Assembly (NCBI GenBank): GCA_965215665.1
Contig: OZ244110.1
Location: 1,627,062 to 1,691,061, forward strand
Direction of reading: 5' to 3'
From: an uncultured Methylophaga sp.
GTDB taxonomy: Bacteria; Pseudomonadota; Gammaproteobacteria; Nitrosococcales; Methylophagaceae
DNA: 64,000 bases
Shown: piece by piece, positions 2,162-41,388 of the stretch
Layout of the letters: each line of letters begins with the position of its first letter
How positions within the stretch are numbered: the stretch's first letter is position 1
Notes under the pieces: generated by a model
The model's database searches: none
Told to the model about the DNA's origin: nothing
What the model saw: the letters and a program-made list of their open reading frames with translations, nothing else
Program-made: the position numbers and the translations under genes

Positions 2162-5100
2162 TATTCTGCCTCCCCGGAAATAACGACCAGTCGATCACCC
2201 ATACCGACCTGCGCGCCGGCCTGTCGTTTAATTTCTGTGACGGTACCGGCTTGAGTCGCTGTTATCTGGATTTCCATTTTCATCGCTTCAAGGATCATCA
2301 ATACATCGCCTTCTTGTACAGACGAGCCGATTTCTACTTCCACTTTCCAGACGCTGCAATTGAGCGGGCTATCAACGGAAATCGCATTTTCTGGCAAAGG
2401 TGCACTTTCCTCATCGATGATCTGCGGTTCATTGCCACTATCAAAATGTAAAAGACCCTCGCGTTTCCAGTGTTCCAGCTCCTGTTCAAAGGCGAGTTCA
2501 CGCTGGCGGGTAAAGCTGTCAATCGACTCTTTATGTTGCTCAATAAACTGGTTATAGCGTTTGAGATTGAAGGTGGTTTCTTCAATCTTCAGCGGGTAAT
2601 TGCCCTGTGGAAAATCACGACGGATCTGTACCAGTTCATCATGAGTAACTTCATAAAACTTGATTTGATCGAAAAAACGTAACAACCAGGGTTTAGTGAA
2701 TTCAGTGGTTTGCAGATAACGATTCCACATCTGCAGGGTCCGGCCGATAAACTGATAGCCACCCGGTCCTTCCATGCCATAAACGCACAGATAGGAACCG
2801 CCGATACCTACAGAGTTTTCAGCCGTCCAGGTCCGGGCAGGGTTATATTTGGTGGTGACCAGACGGTGTCTGGGGTCCAGTGGCGTTGCGACTGGCGCGC
2901 CCAGATAGACATCGCCCAGGCCCATCACCAGATAACTGGCCTCAAACACAATACGCTTCACTTCATCGACCGAGCTAAGTCCGTTTATACGACGAATAAA
3001 CTCAATATTATCCGGACACCAGGGAGCGTTATGACGTACCCCTTGCATATACTTCTGAATAGCTTGCTGACAGGCTTCGTCATTCCAGGAAATGGGTAAA
3101 TGCACGATACGTGCAGGCACGTCCATTTCTTCGATATTGCTGATTTCCTGTTCAGCTTTTTTGAGAATACCAACCAGAGTTTCCAGGGAAATTTGCAGAC
3201 CATTGTAGTGGATCTGCAGCGAACGAATACCGGGTGTAAGCTCCCGTAATCCTTGGATATTTTGATCCTGTAACCACAACATCAACGCATGTACCTTAAA
3301 GCGCAGATTGATATCCAGTTTCAGTTCGCCATATTCGACCAGCAGATAATGATCGCCAGCCAACCGGTAGCAGACATCTATACCAGTCTCTGGCGAATTC
3401 AGCGTGTCATAGATGGGCGAGCCAATTTCTGTGGGGACGACCTCAACAGATTGTTGCGTCAAATTGCTCAGCGATTCCAGCTGAGCCCGTTCCATGGCTC
3501 TGGCGGTTTCTATCGACACTGGAATAAACCGCACGGTATCGCCGGCTTTTAATTGGCCTATTTTCCATAGTTCTGCGGTGATTACCGTGGCCGGACAGAC
3601 AAAGCCACCCAACGACGGACCATCGGGGCCGAGAATAATCGGCATATCACCAGTGAAATCAATGGTGCCCACCGCATAGGCATTATCATGAATATTGGAC
3701 GGGTGTAAGCCTGCTTCGCCGCCGGTATTTCGAGCCCATTCCGGACGTGGTCCAATCAGTCTGATACCGGTGCGGCTGGAGTTATAGTGAATTTTCCAGT
3801 CAGCGGCAAAAAACGTTTCGATATCCTTTTCGGTGAAGAAATCCGGCGCGCCATGCGGGCCGTAAATAACCTTAATCTCCCAGTGAGTGGTTATTTGCGG
3901 AATTAATTCGGCAGGCGTTGTTGTTAAATCAACTTGAGAGGTTTCATCTGATAAATGAAGAACATCACCAGTTTTTAACGTTCGACCGACATGGCCGCCA
4001 AATTGACCCAGGGTAAAGGTGGAGCGGGAGCCTAGATAATTCGGGCATTGAATGCCACCAGCCACCAGCAGATAAGACCGCGTACCGGCGGCTTTGATTT
4101 GACCCAGTGTAAGTTTGTCGCCGCTAGTGACAGAGTATATTTGCCAGCAATCAATCGGCTCGCCATTGAGTTTGGTCTCAATGGTGGCACCAGTAATGAT
4201 AATTTGGCTGCTGCAGTTAAATACCAGTTCCGGGCCGCTCAGCGTGATTTCCAATCCAGCACAGTCTTCCGTGTTACCAAGCAGACGATTACCCAACCGG
4301 AACGACCAGTTGTCATACGGGCCAGAAGGCGGAATGCCGATATCCCAATAGCCTTGCCGACCGGGATAATCCTGCACTGTGGTCATGGTGCCTGGCGATA
4401 TAACACTGAAGGTATTGGGCTGATAAACAAAACTGTCCAGATACCGAGTGGTGATGCTGGCGGATAAAAAGGCGGCATCATTCAAAATATGGCTGAGATA
4501 GTCGGTATTGGTTTCAATACCGTAGATGCTGATTTGTTTCAGTGCTGTGAGCAGTTTCTCATGCGCCGTTTCGCGTGTTTCTGCAAAGCTGATCACTTTA
4601 GCCAGCATCGGATCAAAAAAAGGCGAGATCTCGATACCGGGTTTAATCCAGTGATCGATACGTAAATCCGGCAGTTGAGGAAAAATAACCTCCGTTAACA
4701 AGCCAGCAGACGGCTGGAATTTTTTGAATGGATCTTCGGCATACAACCTTACTTGTATGGCATGACCATGAGGTTTGGGTGCTTTGAGAGGCAATGTGCT
4801 TTCCTGCGCTCCGACCTCAATCATCCAGCGAACCAGATCCACCTGATAAATAGCCTCGGTAACACCGTGCTCAACCTGCAGCCGGGTATTTACCTCCAGA
4901 AAATAAAAGTCATGTGTCTGGGCATCGTAGACAAATTCCACGGTACCGGCGCTGCGATAATTAACAGCTGCCATTAACCGGACGGCAACCTCGTGCATAG
5001 ACTGACGAACGTTGTCGGGAATATTCGGCGCTGGCGCTTCTTCAATCACTTTCTGATTACGCCGTTGACTGGAACAGTCCCGATCGCCCAGTGCCAGAAC

Positions 5101-5757
5101 ATGTCCCTGACCATCGCCGATAATCTGCACTTCGATATGTCGCGCCTGGGTGATAAATTTTTCGATAAACACGCCATCATTGGAAAAATTATTAGCGCCG
5201 AGTCGTTTAACCGAATTAAAGGCGTTTTTCAGCTCAGCTTCGTTATCACAACGGCTCATGCCGATACCGCCACCACCGGCGGTGGATTTAAGCATTACCG
5301 GATAACCTACGATCTGAGCAGTTGTGATCGCCTGTTCAATATCCGCGAGTAATTCTGAGCCGGGCAATAACGGAACATCGTTTTGCTGAGCCAGTGCTCT
5401 GGCACTGTGTTTCAGACCAAAGGCTTCCATCTGCTCCGGTGTGGGGCCCAGAAAAACCAGATTATTGGCTTCACAAAGCCGGGCAAAGTCGGGGTTTTCA
5501 CTTAAAAAACCATAACCGGGATGAATTGCTTCTGCGCCGATTTCTCTGGCAATTTCGAGAATGCGTTGCTGATTCAGATAAGTGTCTGCAGCGCGGCCTT
5601 CTCCAAGCGAAAAGGCTTCATCAGCAGTACTGACATGCAAAGAGTCACGGTCCGCTTCTGCATAGATGGCAACAGCCTGAATACCCATTTGCTGGAGGGT
5701 GCGAATGATTCTGGTGGCAATAGCCCCGCGGTTGGCAATTAAAATCTTCTTGAACAT
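2161..5757 (-). CDS. uca: Urea/guanidine carboxylase (biotin carboxylase, carboxyltransferase and biotin-carrier domains)
   Basis: ILIANRGAIA, HPGYGFLSEN, FLEVNTRLQVEH biotin carboxylase motifs; HPSNIHD and GMEGPGGYQ carboxyltransferase motifs; EAMKM biotinylation site; 1198 aa. Riboswitch context points to guanidine as substrate. Confidence 0.95.
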   Translation of the reverse strand: MFKKILIANRGAIATRIIRTLQQMGIQAVAIYAEADRDSLHVSTADEAFSLGEGRAADTYLNQQRILEIAREIGAEAIHPGYGFLSENPDFARLCEANNLVFLGPTPEQMEAFGLKHSARALAQQNDVPLLPGSELLADIEQAITTAQIVGYPVMLKSTAGGGGIGMSRCDNEAELKNAFNSVKRLGANNFSNDGVFIEKFITQARHIEVQIIGDGQGHVLALGDRDCSSQRRNQKVIEEAPAPNIPDNVRQSMHEVAVRLMAAVNYRSAGTVEFVYDAQTHDFYFLEVNTRLQVEHGVTEAIYQVDLVRWMIEVGAQESTLPLKAPKPHGHAIQVRLYAEDPFKKFQPSAGLLTEVIFPQLPDLRIDHWIKPGIEISPFFDPMLAKVISFAETRETAHEKLLTALKQISIYGIETNTDYLSHILNDAAFLSASITTRYLDSFVYQPNTFSVISPGTMTTVQDYPGRQGYWDIGIPPSGPYDNWSFRLGNRLLGNTEDCAGLEITLSGPELVFNCSSQIIITGATIETKLNGEPIDCWQIYSVTSGDKLTLGQIKAAGTRSYLLVAGGIQCPNYLGSRSTFTLGQFGGHVGRTLKTGDVLHLSDETSQVDLTTTPAELIPQITTHWEIKVIYGPHGAPDFFTEKDIETFFAADWKIHYNSSRTGIRLIGPRPEWARNTGGEAGLHPSNIHDNAYAVGTIDFTGDMPIILGPDGPSLGGFVCPATVITAELWKIGQLKAGDTVRFIPVSIETARAMERAQLESLSNLTQQSVEVVPTEIGSPIYDTLNSPETGIDVCYRLAGDHYLLVEYGELKLDINLRFKVHALMLWLQDQNIQGLRELTPGIRSLQIHYNGLQISLETLVGILKKAEQEISNIEEMDVPARIVHLPISWNDEACQQAIQKYMQGVRHNAPWCPDNIEFIRRINGLSSVDEVKRIVFEASYLVMGLGDVYLGAPVATPLDPRHRLVTTKYNPARTWTAENSVGIGGSYLCVYGMEGPGGYQFIGRTLQMWNRYLQTTEFTKPWLLRFFDQIKFYEVTHDELVQIRRDFPQGNYPLKIEETTFNLKRYNQFIEQHKESIDSFTRQRELAFEQELEHWKREGLLHFDSGNEPQIIDEESAPLPENAISVDSPLNCSVWKVEVEIGSSVQEGDVLMILEAMKMEIQITATQAGTVTEIKRQAGAQVGMGDRLVVISGEAE

Positions 5758-6504: not shown

Positions 6505-7245
6505 TTAATGATGTGCACACAGGTGATAGAGACGATTGTTTGCAAAACCACGTTGGTTTTCGGCACAGGCATTCAGGCACAGATCGTCTTCAGTGACGGC
6601 GGCAGCATTACGAATTTGATAGATAACGGGGTTTTTCGGATAGGTCGCTGCCGTGTTCATCGGGTGTGGGCAGGTGTGGAACAGCACCAGGGTATCCATT
6701 TCAAAGCGCAGATCTACATAATCACCGGCTTTACTGTGGTTTTCGACATAGGTCAGATTGCCAAGATCATCTGTTTTGATACTGCTAAACAAATTCAGAT
6801 TGGCTGCCATATCGCGTTTATTCAGACCATATTTGGCCAATTCGACTAAAAAGGCCTGTTCGCCACTGATGGTCCAATCATTACGAAACTGTTGGTAATT
6901 TTTGACGCCCCATTTAGCCTCCAACGTAGCATTGGTCAGATTGCCGCCAACGGTATCGTGCCAGCCCAGTGTATCTTCAGTGATTGAGCAAAAAATGCGG
7001 CCCATATCGGAATAGAGACAGTGGCCCTTGGTAAGTTTGAAGGTGTGCTGACATTTCAAGGTGTCGGGAGCGTTGTAGCGTTCCAGCATATTCTCCGGGT
7101 TGTAAAACAACATGCCGACATTGGCACCACCTTCCTGGTCAATCAGCCGCAGGGTGGTGCCTTTTCGCATCAGCATTGACCAATGAGCTCCACCTGGAAG
7201 TGTGTCTTGATATAAAACATCTTTGTCTTGGGTAATTTCAGTCAT
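6505..7245 (-). CDS. cgdA: Urea carboxylase-associated DUF1989 protein, carboxyguanidine deiminase subunit A
   Basis: [29 protein letters not shown] motifs; paired with a second DUF1989 gene upstream of uca. Confidence 0.85.
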
Positions 7246-8023
7246 TATTTATAGCCTGTTGTGTCATCAACGTCTCTTGAAAATCTTTGTTGATTTGTTT
7301 TTTGGAACGTCCTACCGGTATGTCATAGGTGATCGATGCTCCATAACGGTTTGGCTGATCAGGATCATGGCGCTGTTTATCAAAGACCAGCAGTTGGGTG
7401 CCTAGGGAGAAACCTTCGGAGAGATCATGGGTGATCATAAAAATCGTGATATTGGTCTCGCGCCAGATATCCAGAATCAACTCATGCATATCGGATCGAA
7501 TACCGGGATCCAGTGCACCGAAGGGTTCATCCAGTAACAGAATTTGTGGCTGTTTAATTAAGGCCTGAGCAATTGCCAGGCGTTGTTGCATACCCCCTGA
7601 TAATTCGCTGGGATATTTGGTTAAAGCGTGGTCTAGACCGACCTTTTCCAGCAAAGCAATCGCTCGTTCACGAATAGCCTGACGTTTTTTGCCAAAGCAG
7701 CGACCCAGTAGGGGAGATTCCTTCAGTTCCTCACCCAGCATCACGTTTTCGACGACGTTAAGGTGGGAAAATACCGAGTATTTCTGAAACACAATACCGC
7801 GATCAGCACCCGGTTCATTGGCTATTGGTTTACCGTTTAACAGCAATTCACCTCGAGTGGGTTGCTCAGTGCCCAGCAGCATTTTCAGGAAGGTGGTTTT
7901 GCCACAACCTGATGCACCAACCAGCGTGACAAATTCGCCGGCTTTGACATCAAGATTGATATTTTCCAGCACGATATTGTCGCCGTATTCCTTCCATAGA
8001 TTTTTGATCTTGATATCGTTCAT
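7238..8023 (-). CDS. ABC transporter ATP-binding protein (TauB/NrtD-like; probable guanidine uptake)
   Basis: Walker A GASGCGKT, signature LSGGMQQR, Walker B LLLDEPFGALD. Confidence 0.92.
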   Translation of the reverse strand: MNDIKIKNLWKEYGDNIVLENINLDVKAGEFVTLVGASGCGKTTFLKMLLGTEQPTRGELLLNGKPIANEPGADRGIVFQKYSVFSHLNVVENVMLGEELKESPLLGRCFGKKRQAIRERAIALLEKVGLDHALTKYPSELSGGMQQRLAIAQALIKQPQILLLDEPFGALDPGIRSDMHELILDIWRETNITIFMITHDLSEGFSLGTQLLVFDKQRHDPDQPNRYGASITYDIPVGRSKKQINKDFQETLMTQQAINND

Positions 8024-34235: not shown

Positions 34236-34340
34236 TTTTTAGCTGAAAAATAAAGTTGTTAATTTTCAATAGCTTATTATATCGGGAAATTATTCCCGAA
34301 AATAAGCTGGAAAAACTCACAAAAAAGTTATGTAAAGTTC

Positions 34341-34375
34341 TTGACGAACCCGGGAAGTCGGATTATGGTTCGTCA
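34341..34375 (+). promoter_or_regulatory. Sigma70-like xoxF promoter overlapped by a 9-bp inverted repeat
   Basis: TTGACG-N17-TATGGT; TGACGAACC (34342-34350) and GGTTCGTCA (34367-34375) are a perfect inverted repeat. Confidence 0.6.
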
Positions 34376-34440: not shown

Positions 34441-36219
34441 ATGAAGCTGAAAACATTATCAATTGCAATGATGGGGTTAGCCGCGCCAGGTCTGGTGGCT
34501 GCAGATGAACTCCTTGAAATGCAAAAAAATGACAATAACTGGGTTATGCCTGCTGGTGACTACGCTAATACGCGTTACAGCGAACTGACTCAAATCACTA
34601 AAGACAACGTCAAAGATTTGAACATGGCTTGGTCTTTCTCAACCGGTGTTTTACGTGGCCACGAAGGTAATGCTTTGGTCATGGACGGCACCATGTACGT
34701 TCATACAGCGTTTCCAAACATCGTTTTCGCACTGGATTTGAACAACGATGGCGCCATCAAATGGAAATATGAGCCAAAACAAAACTACGATGAAACTGTA
34801 CCAGTCATGTGCTGTGATACCGTTAATCGTGGTCTGTCTTATGGCGATGGCAAAATCTTCCTGAACCAAGCTGACACAACTCTGGTTGCGTTGGATATGG
34901 AAACAGGTGAAGTTGTTTGGTCTGACAAACGTGACGATCCAAAAGTAGGTGCAACCAGCACCGCTGCTGCCCACGTTTTTGACGACAAAATCATCGTCGG
35001 TATTTCAGGTGGTGAATTTGGTGTTCGTGGTTATGTTCAAGCATATGACTTAGACGGTAACGTGCAGTACAAAGCGTACAGCACCGGTCCTGACGATGAA
35101 ATGCTGATTGATCCAGAAAAAACCATGTCTATGCTGAAACCAGTTGGCAAGGATTCTTCACTGAAATCTTGGCAGGGCGACCAGTGGAAAATCGGTGGTG
35201 GTACTACCTGGGGTTGGTATTCTTACGATCCTGACTTGAACCAGTTCTATTATGGTTCAGGTAATCCATCTACCTGGAACCCAGTACAACGTCCTGGTGA
35301 CAACAAATGGTCAATGTCTTTGTTTGGTCGTGATTTAGACACGGGTATGGCGAAATGGGTTTACCAAATGACGCCTTACGATGAGTGGGATTATGACGGC
35401 GTTAACGAAAACATCCTGGTCGATCAGAAAATCAAAGGCAAAATGCGTAAAATGTTAGTGCATTTTGACCGTAACGGTTTTGGTTACACCATGGATCGTG
35501 AAACAGGTGAATTGCTGGTTGCTGAAAAATTTGACCCAGCAGTTAACTGGTCAAACGGCGTTAACCTGAAAACCGGTCTGCATGATCGTGTAGCGAAATA
35601 TTCAACTGCACGTAACGGTGAAGACGTAAACACCACTGGTATCTGCCCAGCAGCATTGGGTACAAAAGATCAACAGCCAGCGGCGTTCTCACCACGTACC
35701 GGTCTGTTCTATGTACCAACCAACCATGTTTGCATGGACTACGAACCATTCGAAGTTGAATACGTAGCCGGTCAACCATACGTTGGTGCGACATTGAGCA
35801 TGTACCCACCAGAAGGTGATACACACTTGGGTAACTTCATTGCCTGGGATGCTCGTGAAGGTAAAATCGTCTGGTCGAACCCAGAGCGCTTCTCAGTCTG
35901 GTCAGGTGCTTTGGCAACTGCCTCTGATGTAGTGTTCTACGGAACGCTGGAAGGTTACCTGAAAGCAGTTGATGCCCAATCAGGTCGTGAACTGTGGAGA
36001 TTTAAAACTCCATCAGGCATTATCGGTAACGTTAATACCTACAAACACAACAACAAACAGTATATTTCTATCCTGTCTGGTGTAGGTGGTTGGGCTGGTA
36101 TCGGTATGGCTATTCCAAGTTTGGAAAATGACACAGATGGTCTGGGCGCAGTTGGTGCATATCGTGCACTGTCTAGCTGGACTAACCTGGGTGGTGTTCT
36201 GAGCGTATTTAGCCTGTAA
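34441..36219 (+). CDS. xoxF: Lanthanide-dependent PQQ methanol dehydrogenase
   Basis: Signal peptide, [10 protein letters not shown] vicinal cysteines, [18 protein letters not shown] with the extra lanthanide-ligating Asp (MxaF has DYAG); no mxaI nearby. Confidence 0.96.
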
Positions 36220-36257: not shown

Positions 36258-36296
36258 AAAAACCCGGTATCTTTTATAGATGCCGGGTTTTTTTTT
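36258..36296 (+). terminator. Intrinsic terminator after xoxF
   Basis: AAAACCCGGTATCT-TTTAT-AGATGCCGGGTTTTTTTTT. Confidence 0.85.
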
Positions 36297-36354
36297 GAAC
36301 AAAAACGGCATAGGAAATGTCATATATATTCCCAAAAGAAATAAGGAAGAGAGA

Positions 36355-37230
36355 ATGATCAAACTACAAAAATGGGCAATCCTGGCGTCTGCTCTACTGG
36401 GTGCCTCGTTTGCAGTTAATGCGGAAGAACTGAAGCCAATTCCGGGACAAGAAGTATTAAGGGTCTGTGCGGATCCTAATAATATGCCGTATTCCAATAA
36501 AAACAAGGAAGGTTTTGATAATAAAATTGCTGAATTATTAGGTGAAAAATTAGGCATTCCGGTTGAATACTACTGGTTCCCTCAACGTATTGGGTTTTCG
36601 CGTAATACTATAAAAAAAGAACATCCTGAACGCGGTGGCTATATGTGTGATTTGGCAATGAGCGTTCCTGAGCACACCGATTTTCTGCTGCCGACCAAAC
36701 CCTATTTCAGTTCTATTGAATCGATTGCCTATCGAAGTGGGGAAGGTTATGAAATCAAAAAGCTTTCAGATTTAAAAGAAGTCAATGAAAAACATGGACC
36801 ATTAAAAATTGGTTTGTTTGATCGCGCCATTTCCACCAAAGCTCTCCTTGATATGGGGCTTGGAGATAATATTGTTTATTATCAATTGATGAGTGGCGAT
36901 GTAAATGCGAGCCCAGGTAGAGCGATTGAAGATTTAGCTGCTGGAAAAATTGACGTGATCCCAATGTGGGGACCGGTAGCCGGTTACCACGCCAAAGTTG
37001 CTGATGTACCAATAACCGTTAATCCATTAAATGAATTGGGTCAGCTTCATGTATTCAGTTTTAGTATGGCAACTCGCTATTCAAATAGAGATTGGAATAA
37101 ATTACTGAACAAATTTATAGATCAGAATAAAGCTGAGATAGATGCCATTATTGCTGAATACAATTTACCCTCATTGGAAAATGTCAGTCCTACACCTGCG
37201 AAAAAACCGCGTAAAGATGATGACGATTAA
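36355..37230 (+). CDS. xoxJ: XoxJ/MxaJ-like periplasmic binding protein
   Basis: Signal peptide, LRVCADPNNMPYSN, GFDNKIAEL, MWGPVAGY, acidic DDDD tail; start placed at ATG 36355. Confidence 0.88.
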   Translation: MIKLQKWAILASALLGASFAVNAEELKPIPGQEVLRVCADPNNMPYSNKNKEGFDNKIAELLGEKLGIPVEYYWFPQRIGFSRNTIKKEHPERGGYMCDLAMSVPEHTDFLLPTKPYFSSIESIAYRSGEGYEIKKLSDLKEVNEKHGPLKIGLFDRAISTKALLDMGLGDNIVYYQLMSGDVNASPGRAIEDLAAGKIDVIPMWGPVAGYHAKVADVPITVNPLNELGQLHVFSFSMATRYSNRDWNKLLNKFIDQNKAEIDAIIAEYNLPSLENVSPTPAKKPRKDDDD

Positions 37231-37260: not shown

Positions 37261-37298
37261 AATGGAGGCTACAAAATAGTAGCCTCCATTATTTTTTT
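37261..37298 (+). terminator. Terminator after xoxJ, overlapping the 3' end of the convergent gene
   Basis: AATGGAGGCTAC-AAAATA-GTAGCCTCCATT followed by T run. Confidence 0.75.
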
Positions 37299-37730
37299 CA
37301 GATCATCATTAATTCGGGCAGCAAAACGTGCCTGATCTTTATCCGATACGTTTTCATCCATTAATCTGGTGCCAATAACCACACCATTGTTGCTTTCCCT
37401 GACAGTAATGATGCAGGGCATATCATTGATAAGTTGTTCATTAATCAACATCATTTCTTTTGCATGGGTGATATTGCAAAAGCTGATGACAGTTGATAAA
37501 GGGAAGCTTTTATCTCCACGTTCACGGATCGCCGAACCGATTTCGCTTTTATGAATTATCCTGTAGTTATGCTCGGAGATGGCTATATCCAGATTTACCA
37601 GTGTGTCTTGGTAATTATACGGGCTGTTTTTTTCAAGTATTCGATTAGTGTTTGCCGACTGACATGCGATAATAATCAATACGCTTGAAATCACAATTGC
37701 AGGAATCTTTAGGCGTTCAAGTAGAGTCAT
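37269..37730 (-). CDS. DUF302-family probable lipoprotein
   Basis: Hydrophobic leader ending IIIAC (lipobox-like); SPYNYQDTL..LDIAISEHNYRI, FCNITHA, MPCIITV typical of DUF302; start placed at ATG 37730. Confidence 0.72.
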   Translation of the reverse strand: MTLLERLKIPAIVISSVLIIIACQSANTNRILEKNSPYNYQDTLVNLDIAISEHNYRIIHKSEIGSAIRERGDKSFPLSTVISFCNITHAKEMMLINEQLINDMPCIITVRESNNGVVIGTRLMDENVSDKDQARFAARINDDLKKIMEATIL

Positions 37731-37805: not shown

Positions 37806-38489
37806 GTGAAGACAAACCAATACATCGTTTTTTTGTTCGGATTAATATTGCTGTTAAGTGGCAAAGCGTTTGCAGCTCCGGGCATGTCAGAAATTAATAA
37901 TGAGTTATTTGATAAAGCGCATTTAAAAAATATTGACCAGCCGGGCGTGCTGAAATATAAATTTTCCAAAACCAGTTTTGTTGATGGCGATCGTCAGGAC
38001 ACGATTGATGTGATGGTCAAAAATATTCGTAATACCGGGCGTGCAGATACTTATTTTGAGTTTTTTTCCGGTGAAAACAAACGACCATATCAGGAACGTC
38101 TGGATCAGCGTGGCAATAGTGTATTCGTTTTATTTCTGGAGTATGACGTACATGAAATGAAACGTTTGACCGGAGGTGAATGGCGTTATTTTCAACGCTT
38201 ACTGCGTTGGTCATTTGCTGAGGGAGCCGACAAAAAACAAGTCGAAGTGGATTACAACGGTGAGAAGGTAAAGGCATGGCAATATACTGTACAGCCTTAC
38301 GTCAACGATCCGAAAAATGATCGTTATAAATTGTATTCTTCCAAATACTATATTTTCACAATGTCTGAAGAAATTCCTGGTGAAATTTATCAGGTTAAAA
38401 CAGTGGTTCCAGACGGCAAAAACTGGAAAGAAGGTGATCCGGTGCTGGTTGAGGAAAAAGTCACATTTAGCGGTTTCGAGCCACAATAA
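37806..38489 (+). CDS. Exported protein of unknown function
   Basis: GAGGT Shine-Dalgarno, GTG start, signal peptide ending AFA; GNSVFVLFLEYDVHEMKRLTGG.WRYF core; own terminator. Confidence 0.8.
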   Translation: MKTNQYIVFLFGLILLLSGKAFAAPGMSEINNELFDKAHLKNIDQPGVLKYKFSKTSFVDGDRQDTIDVMVKNIRNTGRADTYFEFFSGENKRPYQERLDQRGNSVFVLFLEYDVHEMKRLTGGEWRYFQRLLRWSFAEGADKKQVEVDYNGEKVKAWQYTVQPYVNDPKNDRYKLYSSKYYIFTMSEEIPGEIYQVKTVVPDGKNWKEGDPVLVEEKVTFSGFEPQ

Positions 38490-38536: not shown

Positions 38537-39997
38537 ATGAAAAGACTTTTAAAAAAACTCCAGTCCATTCAAGGTGCCTTAAGGTTCCACGAGCTCAGCT
38601 TTGTGGTGTTAATTATCATGACAGCCTTGATGAGTTTCAACTGGGCACTTGCCTGGCAGAAAAGTTCAGAAGAGTCTCTGCGTTTAAGTTCAATCAATAC
38701 GCATGTACAGCACTTACGTGGTGATCTTTATCGCCAGCTAAAAGAAGTCTTTGATGTTGTTTTTCTGAATGACGAGCTTGCAGCAGAACAATATTATCAA
38801 TTTGTTGATCAGATTAATTCTTATCTGGCTCGGTTAAAAGTGCTTTCGAGTTCACCAGATGAAGAGCTTTTGATCGTCAGAATTGAATATGCCTACAACA
38901 AGTTTTACCAGGAAACCCGACGTTTTCTGGATAAAGATAAACTTAGCAATGATGACAAACTCTGGCTAGATGACCAGGTTGAACAGCAAACCTTTCGTCA
39001 ACTTGAAATGGTTTTCAGCGAAATGGAGCAATATCTTCAGCAGCAACAGCAGCAGTTAACTGATTCTGATGAACGTATGTTTGGCAAAATGCTCCTCAGC
39101 GAAGCATTGCCAATTCTGTTGGCATTAATCCTACTCACTATCTCCAAATGGTTTGTCCGTCGAAATATGCTGGCGCCGCTACGTAATGTTACCCAGGGTG
39201 CCAAGGTAATCAGTACCGGAGATTTTAATCATCATATTCCCTTAACAGGAGTCGACGAGCTGCAACGGCTTTCGCAGGCTATCAATAGCATGGCTGACGA
39301 ATTGTCCAGTAATCGTGACAAATTGATTGAAACCAAAAAACAAGCCGCTTTAGGCGAACTGGTGCCTTTGGTAGCTCATAATATCCGTAATCCTCTTGCG
39401 GGAATTCGCGCGGCTGCACAAGTTTCTATCGAAGAGGCGAATGAAGAAAGTCGTATCGTGCTGAAAGACATTATAATTGCTGTAGATCGACTGGAAAACT
39501 GGGTTACCTCGCTACTGATGTACTTGCATCCGTTAAAACCACACCTTGTTGAGGCAACACTAACTGAACTCACTGATAATGCTTTATCCCTGATAGCGCT
39601 GCAACTCAATGATAAAGGCATCGATGTAAACCGCCATGGCTGGCAGCAAGAGGCCAGACTGATTAATATGGATAATAATCTGATGGAGCAGGCTATTTTC
39701 AATTTGATTCAAAATGCAATTGAAGTGGCACCCATGAATTCAACAATTCATATTCACTACTGGGAAACCCCTCAAAAAATTGGATTGCACATTGAAGATC
39801 AAGGGCCTGGTTTTAGCGAAACGCCTCAACAAGAAACCAGTCAAATGCATAAAAAGCTGAATTGCGGACTGGGTATTCCTTTTGCTCAGAAAGTGATTAA
39901 ACAGCATCAGGGCGATTTGATTTTTGAAAATATTCCGGATGGTGGAGCAAGAGTCTCACTGACCTTGCAACTGGATAAAATGCTGAGTCGTCAATAG
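38537..39997 (+). CDS. HAMP-domain membrane sensor histidine kinase
   Basis: Two TM segments around a periplasmic domain, HAMP (DELQRLSQAINSMA), H-box VAHNIRNPLAGI, N-box NLIQNAIE, DQGPG, GLGIP. Confidence 0.92.
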   Translation: MKRLLKKLQSIQGALRFHELSFVVLIIMTALMSFNWALAWQKSSEESLRLSSINTHVQHLRGDLYRQLKEVFDVVFLNDELAAEQYYQFVDQINSYLARLKVLSSSPDEELLIVRIEYAYNKFYQETRRFLDKDKLSNDDKLWLDDQVEQQTFRQLEMVFSEMEQYLQQQQQQLTDSDERMFGKMLLSEALPILLALILLTISKWFVRRNMLAPLRNVTQGAKVISTGDFNHHIPLTGVDELQRLSQAINSMADELSSNRDKLIETKKQAALGELVPLVAHNIRNPLAGIRAAAQVSIEEANEESRIVLKDIIIAVDRLENWVTSLLMYLHPLKPHLVEATLTELTDNALSLIALQLNDKGIDVNRHGWQQEARLINMDNNLMEQAIFNLIQNAIEVAPMNSTIHIHYWETPQKIGLHIEDQGPGFSETPQQETSQMHKKLNCGLGIPFAQKVIKQHQGDLIFENIPDGGARVSLTLQLDKMLSRQ

Positions 39998-40005
39998 GAT
40001 GTTAC

Positions 40006-41388
40006 ATGCTTAATTTTGTATTAATTGAGGACGAAAACCTGTTCGCCAAATCGGTTAAACGACGACTGGAGCGGGAAGGTCATCAAGCCATAATTGCCGA
40101 TAACATCAGCGATGGAAAAAAACTGTTACGCCAGGAATCAATTGATGTTCTGCTATTGGATGTCAGGCTACCGGATGGCAATGGCCTGGATTTATTAGCT
40201 GAAATTCGTGCGCCAGGACATCCACTGCAGAACTTGCCTGTTGTGATGATGACAGCTTATGGAGAGCTGGAAGACGCCGTTAATGCAATGAAATTTGGTG
40301 CATCAGATTATCTCAAAAAACCGGTGGATTTGGATGAACTGATACTGACGATTGAGAAGGTGGTTCATAATCACGCTATCAGTCGTCAGTTACATTATTC
40401 TGAACAGCGTGAACAAAAGACTAATAAGCCAATTAATCTGATTGGTAGTAGTCAGGAAATCCTGTCAATTAGGCAGCAGGCAAAACAGCTCTCTGAGCTG
40501 ATGGATAAAAATAAGGATACAACCCCTGTCGTATTAATTACGGGTGAGACAGGCAGTGGCAAGGGTGTTCTAGCACGATATTTTCATCAAATAAGCCAGC
40601 GGCATAATCGACCTTTTGTTCTTGTAGATTGTGCTGCATTACCGGAAGCTTCAATCGAAGCTGAATTATTCGGTCAGTCGCCCAGCACCCTCGAAACCAA
40701 TTCTCCTGCTCGTCCCGGTTTGATTGAAGTCGCTGAGGATGGAACATTATTACTGGATGAAATTGCAGAATTATCATTATCAACGCAAACCAAATTGCTT
40801 AATGTTATAGAGCGTAGACAGCTTCGCAGGTTGGGAGCGACCAAAGAAATTCCGGTGAATTCTCATATTATTGCAACGACCAATCGGGATCTTCACCAAT
40901 TAGTTATGTCGGGTGAATTTCGTGCCGATTTGTATTTTCGGTTGAATGTTGTAGAGATTAAACTTCCACCTCTACGAATACGACAACAGGATATAGCTGA
41001 ACTGGCACAGTTTTTTATCGAACAATTTGCCAAGCGTTACGGTGTTGAACAACCAAGACTCGCTTATGATGCCATGCGTGAAATGCAACAATATGACTGG
41101 CCTGGTAACATCCGCGAACTGGAGAATGTTCTGGAGCGAGCAGTAATGCTCTGTAAACAAAGTGTCATCGAGTTTGATGACTTGTCATTGAGAGCTTTTG
41201 GCAGTGACAAACAAGACGAACATGGTGATGGTGGTTCCATGTTCGAAAAAATGACACTTGATCAGGTTGAAAAATATTTATTGGAAACGGCTTTGAACCG
41301 AAGTTCCGGTAATGTTTCCAGAGCGGCAAGACAACTTGGATTAACCCGTATGGCAATGCGTTATCGTATGGAGAAATACAAGCTGTAA
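40006..41388 (+). CDS. NtrC-family response regulator (REC-AAA+-Fis HTH) lacking GAFTGA
   Basis: LLLDVRLPDGNG receiver, GETGSGKG Walker A, LLLDEI Walker B, FRADLYFRLNV, WPGNIRELEN, C-terminal GNVSRAARQLG HTH. Confidence 0.92.
   Translation: MLNFVLIEDENLFAKSVKRRLEREGHQAIIADNISDGKKLLRQESIDVLLLDVRLPDGNGLDLLAEIRAPGHPLQNLPVVMMTAYGELEDAVNAMKFGASDYLKKPVDLDELILTIEKVVHNHAISRQLHYSEQREQKTNKPINLIGSSQEILSIRQQAKQLSELMDKNKDTTPVVLITGETGSGKGVLARYFHQISQRHNRPFVLVDCAALPEASIEAELFGQSPSTLETNSPARPGLIEVAEDGTLLLDEIAELSLSTQTKLLNVIERRQLRRLGATKEIPVNSHIIATTNRDLHQLVMSGEFRADLYFRLNVVEIKLPPLRIRQQDIAELAQFFIEQFAKRYGVEQPRLAYDAMREMQQYDWPGNIRELENVLERAVMLCKQSVIEFDDLSLRAFGSDKQDEHGDGGSMFEKMTLDQVEKYLLETALNRSSGNVSRAARQLGLTRMAMRYRMEKYKL

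Follow-up and report, generated by a model that had tools for sequence, protein, structure and literature searches.

The known regulators of the rare-earth switch are MxbDM, MxcQE, MxaY/MxaB and PedS2/PedR2 (review PMC11845868). They do not cover all organisms, and how methylotrophs control rare-earth sensing and uptake is still open. On the uptake side, Hemmann et al. (2023, J Biol Chem, PMC9988556) described Mfla_1253 of M. flagellatus as a lanthanide-uptake receptor and proposed that it is regulated by Mfla_1254, a sigma-54 regulator with fivefold induction by La3+; a deletion of Mfla_1254 itself was not part of that work, and only for M. flagellatus did we find a sigma-54 regulator tied to a lanthanide receptor in the literature. 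Enhancer-binding-type regulators without the GAFTGA motif are already a known kind. Examples that retain the phospho-acceptor aspartate and regulate sigma-70 promoters are VpsR of Vibrio cholerae and the GAFTGA-less NtrC of Rhodobacter capsulatus and of Caulobacter crescentus (bioRxiv 10.1101/2023.06.06.543975; PMC6158489). According to the passage of that preprint that cites Dago et al. 2007, contact with sigma-54 requires the F and the T of GAFTGA. In this study, we analyzed a 64,000-nucleotide stretch of an uncultured Methylophaga sp. (assembly GCA_965215665.1, contig OZ244110.1, positions 1,627,062 to 1,691,061; hereafter the window), in which an NtrC-family response regulator without GAFTGA is encoded together with its cognate histidine kinase next to the lanthanide methanol dehydrogenase gene xoxF (Table 1). 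On the whole, we lean towards explaining this protein as a sigma-54-independent derivative of an activator linked to pyrroloquinoline quinone (PQQ) and lanthanides.

Loss of the sigma-54 contact loop

A preliminary description of this DNA had stated that the GAFTGA segment of the regulator is replaced while Walker A and B, arginine finger, receiver aspartate and helix-turn-helix (HTH) remain, and our analysis confirmed both parts. At the GAFTGA position the regulator reads ELFGQSPSTLETNSPARPG, its L1 segment is EAELFGQSPSTLETNSPARPGLIEVAEDGTLLLDEI, and the stretch ELFGQSPSTLETNSPA occupies the segment in which enhancer-binding proteins usually carry the motif. The seven paralogues in the same genome (2.97 Mb, 44.8% G+C, a single contig) all show GAFTGA or GSFTGA. 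The closest solved structure is Aquifex aeolicus NtrC1 (1NY5; 273 bits, residues 2-394), which aligns without gaps through L1, with the loop length kept; NtrC1, a sigma-54 activator, differs from the window regulator in carrying GAFTGA. The Pfam search assigned Response_reg (residues 5-116), Sigma54_activat (PF00158; 156-319, 176 bits), AAA_lid_14 (324-404) and HTH_8, and it found no GerE output domain. None of the NCBIfam equivalogs NtrC, NtrX, AtoC and TyrR claims the protein, which stays below the curated cut-off of each (score/cut-off: AtoC 341/714; NtrC, TIGR01818, 321/559; NtrX, NF051870, 320/600; TyrR 229/576).

Key residues outside the loop are conserved. In an alignment of 23 family members that includes both loop-less clades, D9, E10, D52, T83, K105, N293, R306 (which we take to be the arginine finger by homology to NtrC1 and PspF), R370 and the HTH core NVS..AR.LGL.RMAMRYR are invariant, and the recognition helix is nearly identical in this regulator, in its counterparts from Methylophaga with a GAFTNA motif and in the Methylophilaceae orthologues. 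The AlphaFold (AF2) model has a mean predicted local distance difference test (pLDDT) score of 82.6 and is weak at the linkers and the loop tip, where residues 228-231 fall below 50.

Of 24 other Methylophaga genomes, 16 have an orthologue of at least 50% identity, at the same position each time, and the kinase/regulator pair is absent from eight. In the regulator tree, 37 loop-less database sequences form one clade (Shimodaira-Hasegawa-like approximate likelihood-ratio test 100) nested among GAFTNA-bearing Methylophaga sequences, indicating that the motif was lost once within the genus; as the loss is common to all 37, it is not a sequencing artefact. One loop-less subclade has settled on a conserved new loop, MAANFLPHPHPA, while the subclade of the window regulator conserves the length of the loop and none of its residues. 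Across 22 clade members the pairwise identity is 0.37 in the loop vs 0.86 in the remainder of the AAA+ module, and only the linker before the HTH matches the loop in variability. The variants GAFTNA and GAFTSA are to be read as functional and not as a loss, since position five of the motif is naturally variable: of the 149 NtrC-like cluster representatives closest to the regulator, 61 carry GAFTDA, 46 carry GAFTGA and a few clearly lack the motif.

The ratio of nonsynonymous to synonymous substitution rates (dN/dS) of the regulator is 0.051 against its closest relative (dS 0.40) and 0.075 against G009, the closest complete relative, with similar values for neighbouring genes and 0.03-0.11 for the kinase. 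The loop-less regulator is under purifying selection and is not decaying. Considering the hypervariable loop together with the loss of operators and -24/-12 promoter at the probable ancestral target (see below), the contact with sigma-54 is almost certainly gone, as had been supposed, and the regulator very probably works independently of sigma-54. The database label "sigma-54-dependent" is thus probably wrong for the loop-less clade.

Two side observations concern related proteins. The same genome encodes a second activator-like protein without GAFTGA (C1:1180971-1181462, minus strand, within a 317-aa open frame) with a shortened loop, DLFGRANADGEVIEPGRL. In G021 (locus L027, C1:1163000-1181500), the regulator is split into two overlapping frames (3840-5218) and the adjoining 227-aa gene into three pieces (6736-7429), which could be pseudogenisation or long-read homopolymer errors; the receptor promoter of this genome (see next section) has kept the form with operators and sigma-54 elements.

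Family contexts and the receptor promoter

The regulator is nested in the tree of a compact family whose members share 47-60% identity with it (434 and 418 bits), the next representatives beyond the family reaching at most 44% and 387 bits. It is also present in 34 Methylophagaceae contigs or loci of the named genome collection, and at 47-50% identity it recurs in three further settings, usually with a kinase alongside whose periplasmic sensor is clearly homologous. Kinases from Methylophaga, Burkholderiales and the pqqA-linked Gammaproteobacteria have the sensor motifs WQxxSEESLR and RGxLYRQxKEVFD in common, and the relatives in these settings carry GAFTNA, GAFTSA or GAYTxA.

The first setting comprises 15 loci of uncultured Gammaproteobacteria, in which pqqA lies divergently beside the kinase gene. 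Most of the 13 pqqA upstream regions that we read contain a promoter of the type TGGCAYGGATNCTGCA / CTGGCAYGGATNCTGCA (with a weaker -12 element in a few) and, about 130 bp further upstream, a palindromic operator, TGGTTCATATAGACCA. Genes for a YkuD and a DUF302 protein follow pqqA, so that DUF302 accompanies the pair here too. We found no study of sigma-54 control of pqqA in those portions of the literature that were accessible, and a literature search for GAFTNA returned no relevant paper.

In the second setting, Methylophilaceae, no kinase gene adjoins the regulator gene, which directly follows the gene of a TonB-dependent receptor (Pfam Plug and barrel). In nine loci the receptor gene is preceded by two to three palindromes, TGGYTGTNNACARCCA, and the promoter TGGCAYGRAAMTTGA. 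In M. flagellatus L1B the two genes have this arrangement and share one orientation, as published for Mfla_1253/1254. As a side observation, the -24 element TGGCAYG of the Methylophilaceae receptor promoter is conserved, whereas its -12 element reads TTGA and not TTGC, so that a GC-based scan misses it (L074:7245-7458 and the same position in L065, L082, L084, L089, L090, L095, L099 and L101).

In the third setting, metagenome-assembled genomes of Burkholderiales, a strong sigma-54 promoter, TGGCACGGGACTTGCT, is found about 50 bp after the regulator stop and pqqA about 6 kb away. Paired family operators follow the terminator described below in 4/5 of these loci and a single site in the fifth (L066). 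These sites were recovered with a weight matrix built from pqqA-linked and Methylophilaceae sites, from which the Burkholderiales loci had been left out, and the recovery of paired sites in an independent setting supports one family operator: tandem 16-bp palindromes, TGGYTGWNNWCARCCA, beside sigma-54 promoters.

Downstream of TGGCACGGGACTTGCT, the Burkholderiales loci share a conserved segment of about 100 nt, CTCATGGTAGKTCTCCAACTTCCTCTCT, ending in an intrinsic terminator (L063:3413-3580, L064:4599-4766, L066:4846-5013, L069:11412-11579 and L073:11417-11584). We regard it as a candidate for a small RNA under sigma-54 control; it contains a CU-rich stretch resembling an anti-Shine-Dalgarno sequence, and its layout is like that of LuxO/qrr. 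Against Rfam it gave a sub-threshold match to Burkholderia ncS16 (27 bits, threshold 48).

The preliminary description had based the link to xoxF on proximity only. Because relatives of the pair adjoin pqqA or a lanthanide-type TonB receptor, a PQQ/lanthanide connection is better founded than that; xoxF as the target fared less well, as discussed below.

The best homologue of the Methylophilaceae receptor in this genome (G000; C1:2436011-2438323, outside the window and downstream of a cysG-like gene) shares 41% identity with it (570 bits, the next match reaching 69 bits), and the gene is present in 24/26 Methylophaga genomes. Paired operators before it were first met in G017 by a pattern search. 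We read the upstream region in 23 genomes and compared 22 of them, leaving out G042, whose regulator state was not determined. All ten GAFTNA-type genomes, including Methylophaga thiooxydans DMS010 and M. sulfidovorans DSM 11578, have a strong operator site at -170 to -184 and a -24/-12 promoter (TTGGCAYTnTnnnTGC at -69 to -82); a second operator site at -148 to -161 reaches a position weight matrix score of at least 14 in 6/10 and is weaker in the other four. The tandem arrangement reads TGGTTGATATCAGCCA-N7-TGGTTTATATTAACCA. Neither operators nor a -24/-12 element are found in the six loop-less genomes, the present one among them. These carry instead a (T/C)AGGAAnnnTTCCT palindrome followed, except in G008, by (C)RTGCTAGCAT(C/T), and the six genomes without the regulator have the same kind of upstream region. 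Operators plus -24/-12 promoter thus occur in 10/10 GAFTNA-type vs 0/12 loop-less or regulator-less genomes (Fisher p = 1.5e-6, uncorrected for phylogeny). When mapped onto the tree of the receptor gene, the GAFTNA label requires three changes or more, so the association does not come down to a single split.

The receptor gene is therefore the likely ancestral target of the regulator. The simplest reading of these upstream sequences is that the GAFTNA regulator activates the receptor gene through sigma-54 and that the lineage of the window has lost this circuit.

Apart from this, TAGGAATTTTTCCTA stands before two TonB-dependent receptor genes of the genome, C1:2436011 and C1:1323531, and may be the operator of a factor that has come to control the receptor in those Methylophaga whose regulator is loop-less or absent. 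The pattern AGGAA-N3-TTCCT has nine occurrences in the genome (control 2), among them C1:2435901, 1323458, 1327457, 2263278 and 2499660.

Proposed explanation, the xoxF cluster and rival readings

We propose that in most lineages the pair is an ordinary sigma-54 enhancer-binding system serving PQQ- and lanthanide-related genes. A GAFT(N/S)A regulator would bind two to three of the 16-bp palindromes about 75-130 bp upstream of a -24/-12 promoter, its target being the lanthanide-uptake-type TonB receptor in Methylophilaceae and GAFTNA-type Methylophaga, or pqqA in other Gammaproteobacteria. In the lineage of the window, the link to sigma-54 would have been cut on both sides: the loop motif was lost once and the loop then drifted, and the receptor gene has another promoter, free of operators. 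Given purifying selection and the intact phospho-acceptor, ATPase residues and HTH, we infer that the loop-less protein now serves as a phosphorylation-controlled, oligomeric DNA-binding regulator at one or more sigma-70 promoters without sigma-54, presumably needing ATP to oligomerise like the NtrC proteins of R. capsulatus and Caulobacter and VpsR.

Several points weigh against this explanation. Matrix and pattern scans of the intergenic DNA of this genome and of G009 found no conserved family operator, and the best single matches (C1:1802509 and C1:2787382) are not shared with G009. The co-variation of loop and promoter is partly phylogenetic, the receptor tree being a gene tree. Within Methylophaga the link between regulator and receptor comes from operator similarity and not from adjacency, the role of the receptor as a lanthanide carrier is taken from the literature on relatives, and the presumed identity of the L1B gene with Mfla_1254 follows gene layout and not the locus tag.

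The operator scans left some observations on single sites. Whether built from pqqA-linked sites or from those of the whole family, the matrices returned only single sites in this genome, mostly inside genes. The receptor gene at C1:2787451, next to the best single site, was dropped as a target, being absent from G009 and other relatives. Upstream of the second TonB receptor (C1:1323531-1325699), three weak operator-like sites, CGTTTGTATACAGCCA, TGGGCCATTACAGCCA and CGGTTCATTTAAACCA, lie within 112 bp (C1:1323279-1323390); about 0.01 such three-site clusters are expected by chance, and the observation is post hoc.

pqqA was rejected as a target in Methylophaga: most of about 30 upstream regions from seven genomes carry a palindrome of the type TCAGGAAAATCCTGA and none a -24/-12 element, and the same motif precedes all three pqqA copies of the regulator-less G012. 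The genome studied here has six identical pqqA copies (C1:851443(-), 1446179(-), 1524364(+), 1526258(+), 2406833(+) and 2654219(-)), each with the TCAGGAAAATCCTGA palindrome about 110 bp upstream and an apparent sigma-70 -10 box.

In the window, gltX is followed by xoxF, a xoxJ-like gene, a convergent DUF302 gene, a 227-aa gene, the kinase gene and the regulator gene, and then by the convergent sspB-sspA-petCB (Table 1). A strong terminator-like hairpin was called only where the xoxJ-like and DUF302 genes converge. With no such site called in the gaps between the 227-aa, kinase and regulator genes, these three are probably co-transcribed; the 227-aa gene is kept in genomes without the pair.

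Table 1. Features of the xoxF cluster and of the regulator gene in the window (window coordinates)
Feature	Position	Strand	Remarks
CGGGAAATTATTCCCG palindrome upstream of xoxF	34283..34298	.	genus-wide, also in genomes without the regulator
xoxF promoter, TTGACG-17-TATGGT, sigma-70-type	34341..34369	+	9/12 matches, not unusual alone; position conserved in 13 Methylophaga loci
Inverted repeat TGACGAACC-N16-GGTTCGTCA	34342..34375	.	spans -35/-10 boxes of xoxF
xoxF, XoxF5-type lanthanide methanol dehydrogenase	34441..36219	+	best solved relatives XoxF1 6OC5 (898 bits) and 6DAM (877 bits)
xoxJ-like periplasmic binding protein	36280..37230	+	TIGR03871
Terminator hairpin	37261..37290	.	overlaps DUF302 stop (37269), 31 bp past the convergent xoxJ-like gene
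DUF302 lipoprotein	37269..37730	-	divergent from the 227-aa gene; likely start ATG at 37730
Exported 227-aa protein	37806..38489	+	no family match; 47-bp gap to kinase gene
Cognate histidine kinase	38537..39997	+	8 bp upstream of regulator; transmembrane segment 1, helical periplasmic sensor of ~145 aa, transmembrane segment 2, HAMP, HisKA, HATPase
NtrC-family response regulator	40006..41388	+	460 aa; receiver, AAA+, lid and Fis-type HTH; without GAFTGA
Codon of Asp52, predicted phospho-acceptor (LLLDVRLPDG)	40159..40161	+	invariant in 23-member alignment
Walker A, GETGSGK	40543..40563	+	residues 180-186; G180, G183, G185, K186 invariant
Degenerate L1 loop QSPSTLETNSPA	40675..40710	+	residues 224-235; replaces (Y/H)E(K/R)GAFT(N/S)A
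Walker B, Asp251-Glu252 (LLLDEI)	40756..40761	+	invariant in 23-member alignment
Codon of Arg306, putative arginine finger (EFRADLYFRL)	40921..40923	+	invariant in 23-member alignment
Fis-type HTH (HTH_8), recognition helix TRMAMRYRMEKY	41254..41379	+	residues 417-458

An unlikely alternative, although the best of the rivals, is that the pair is a lanthanide/methanol system that mainly controls the adjacent xoxF operon, as activator or repressor, from a sigma-70 promoter. Synteny speaks for it in part: wherever Methylophagaceae carry the pair, it lies between xoxF-xoxJ-DUF302-227-aa and sspB (16 genomes; 34 loci). However, this synteny is confined to the one family and may be simply inherited. 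The xoxF promoter had been described as sigma-70-type with palindromes, and we found a palindrome conserved throughout the genus in a constant layout, consisting of CGGGAA-N4-TTCCCG, TTGAC(G/T), a 17-nt spacer, TAtGGT and a conserved leader. The layout is independent of the regulator state, being the same in GAFTNA and loop-less genomes. In G012 (a complete genome) and G014, where sspB directly follows xoxF-xoxJ-DUF302-227-aa and the pair is cleanly missing, palindrome and promoter hexamers are nevertheless kept. As promoter and palindrome persist without the pair, xoxF is probably governed by another factor and is probably not the main target of the regulator. In addition, the matrix scan found no family operator at 34271-34375, which had been put forward for a binding test, nor does one score elsewhere in the cluster.

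xoxF is also favoured by the inverted repeat over its -35/-10 boxes, whose arms include the core of the half-site of the family, GGTTC. It is perfect only here, deviates by one base at both further regulator-linked xoxF loci that were examined in the loop-degenerate clade, and is absent from GAFTNA-type and regulator-less genomes. Yet the arms are everted compared to the family operator and are only a few substitutions away from the sequence in other genomes, so we regard the repeat as the best lead for a present-day operator and not as a finding.

CGGGAA-N4-TTCCCG itself was rejected as the operator of the regulator, since it is kept in regulator-less genomes and also stands before the second xoxF, beside LuxR-type regulators. 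Its core, GGGAA-N4-TTCCC, occurs only four times in the genome: before both xoxF copies (window position 34284; C1:853648) and at C1:2449463 and C1:2449617. The latter two, 154 bp apart, lie upstream of a small unannotated open reading frame (about C1:2449700), after which come type IV pilin-like genes. Downstream of the second xoxF copy lies pqqABCD, and upstream of it are two two-component pairs of the LuxR/GerE type. Methylophaga genomes contain three to five xoxF paralogues of 90-97% identity. In L029 (Methylophaga sp. EAC20, regulator 95% identical), the pair-linked xoxF has an upstream region of the second-copy type, with GGGAAGAACTTCCC and CGGGAAAAAATCCCG, which suggests recombination between xoxF paralogues. 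Mfla_0343, a sigma-54 regulator beside xoxF in M. flagellatus, was discarded as a counterpart because none of its five best L1B homologues adjoins a xoxF-like gene; it may be the GAF-type regulator listed for xoxF clusters in a review's figure legend.

Going further than the explanation we favour, one could suppose that the kinase sensor directly senses lanthanide (or lanthanophore/PQQ) and drives receptor and pqqA through sigma-54 in several proteobacterial orders, and that the lineage of the window re-purposed the system by discarding loop and target enhancer/promoter together for a sigma-54-independent job, possibly at the xoxF promoter; this extension seems doubtful to us.

We consider it improbable that the regulator is a decaying relic which lost its function after the replacement of its target promoter and is heading for deletion. 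The patchy distribution would fit this idea (besides the genomes without the pair, G012 and G014 among them, there is the frameshifted copy in G021), and so would the lack of a conserved operator in the genome. Against it stand dN/dS values of 0.05-0.08 over a dS range of 0.4-2.4, the invariance of catalytic, phospho-acceptor and HTH residues even in the loop-less clades, and the conserved new loop of one loop-less subclade; the frameshifts in G021 are maybe assembly errors.

That the regulator still activates sigma-54 promoters, whether by means of its new loop or by assembling with a canonical activator into mixed hexamers, is extremely improbable: rpoN (TIGR02395, 505 bits) and seven canonical activators are present, the loop length is kept and the ATPase residues are intact, but no loop residue is conserved in the clade, none of the 17 Methylophaga loci scanned has an intergenic -24/-12 element with up to two mismatches in the xoxF cluster, the only one-mismatch match is in coding sequence, and the former target has no -24/-12 promoter. 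This match, TGGCAAAGCGTTTGCA at 37859-37874, was rejected as a promoter; it lies within the part of the 227-aa gene that encodes the signal peptide (LSGKAFA/AP), its place is taken in other Methylophaga by a different GG-N10-GC-like string, and it is probably a coincidence of coding sequence.

Comparison with known regulators

Returning to the sigma-54-independent derivative that we favour, Methylophaga offers a within-genus series from GAFTNA with enhancer and -24/-12 promoter, over the loop-less state with a replaced promoter, to loss of the regulator, which illustrates how a sigma-54 circuit comes apart and which of its parts persist. The family definition (sensor, predicted 16-bp operator and sigma-54 promoters) moreover provides testable sites in the cultivable species M. 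thiooxydans, M. sulfidovorans and M. flagellatus. The system is less novel than the preliminary description had it, since a probable orthologue, Mfla_1254, has already been flagged in M. flagellatus (PMC9988556). The overall picture of the family, with its operator, promoters, targets and conserved sensor, appears to be new, as does the joint loss of loop and enhancer-dependent promoter within one genus.

Mfla_1254 of M. flagellatus KT belongs to the same family; it shares 49-50% identity with the window regulator and is the top match in that genome, the next paralogue reaching 39%. It reads GAFTSA, has no adjacent kinase and goes with a receptor gene that has tandem operators and a -24/-12-like promoter, whereas the window regulator is motif-less, has no operators at the receptor and lies in the xoxF cluster with its kinase.

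The GAFTGA-less NtrC proteins and VpsR share with the window regulator the architecture of receiver, AAA+ module and HTH without the sigma-54 contact motif. In contrast to their L1, which is deleted or shortened, the L1 of the window regulator has kept its length and is scrambled, and the proteins are not orthologues (TIGR01818, 321 vs 559). TyrR is counted among these sigma-54-independent regulators as well. NtrX (Brucella 5M7N; NF051870) is another atypical member of the NtrC family without the classical motif, and a solved homologue matches the window regulator with 227 bits. However, NtrX is alphaproteobacterial and encoded in the ntrYX locus, neither of which is true here, and the NF051870 score again remains below the cut-off (320 vs 600).

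Like MxbDM, MxcQE, MxaY/MxaB and PedS2/PedR2, the pair studied here is a two-component system tied to xoxF, PQQ enzymes and lanthanides. To our knowledge, those rare-earth switch regulators whose architecture has been described have outputs of the LuxR/FixJ (GerE) type, as do the two pairs beside the second xoxF of this genome; the review lists the systems without stating domain types. The window regulator differs from them, as the preliminary description had correctly noted for the known methanol regulators, by its AAA+ module and Fis-type HTH.

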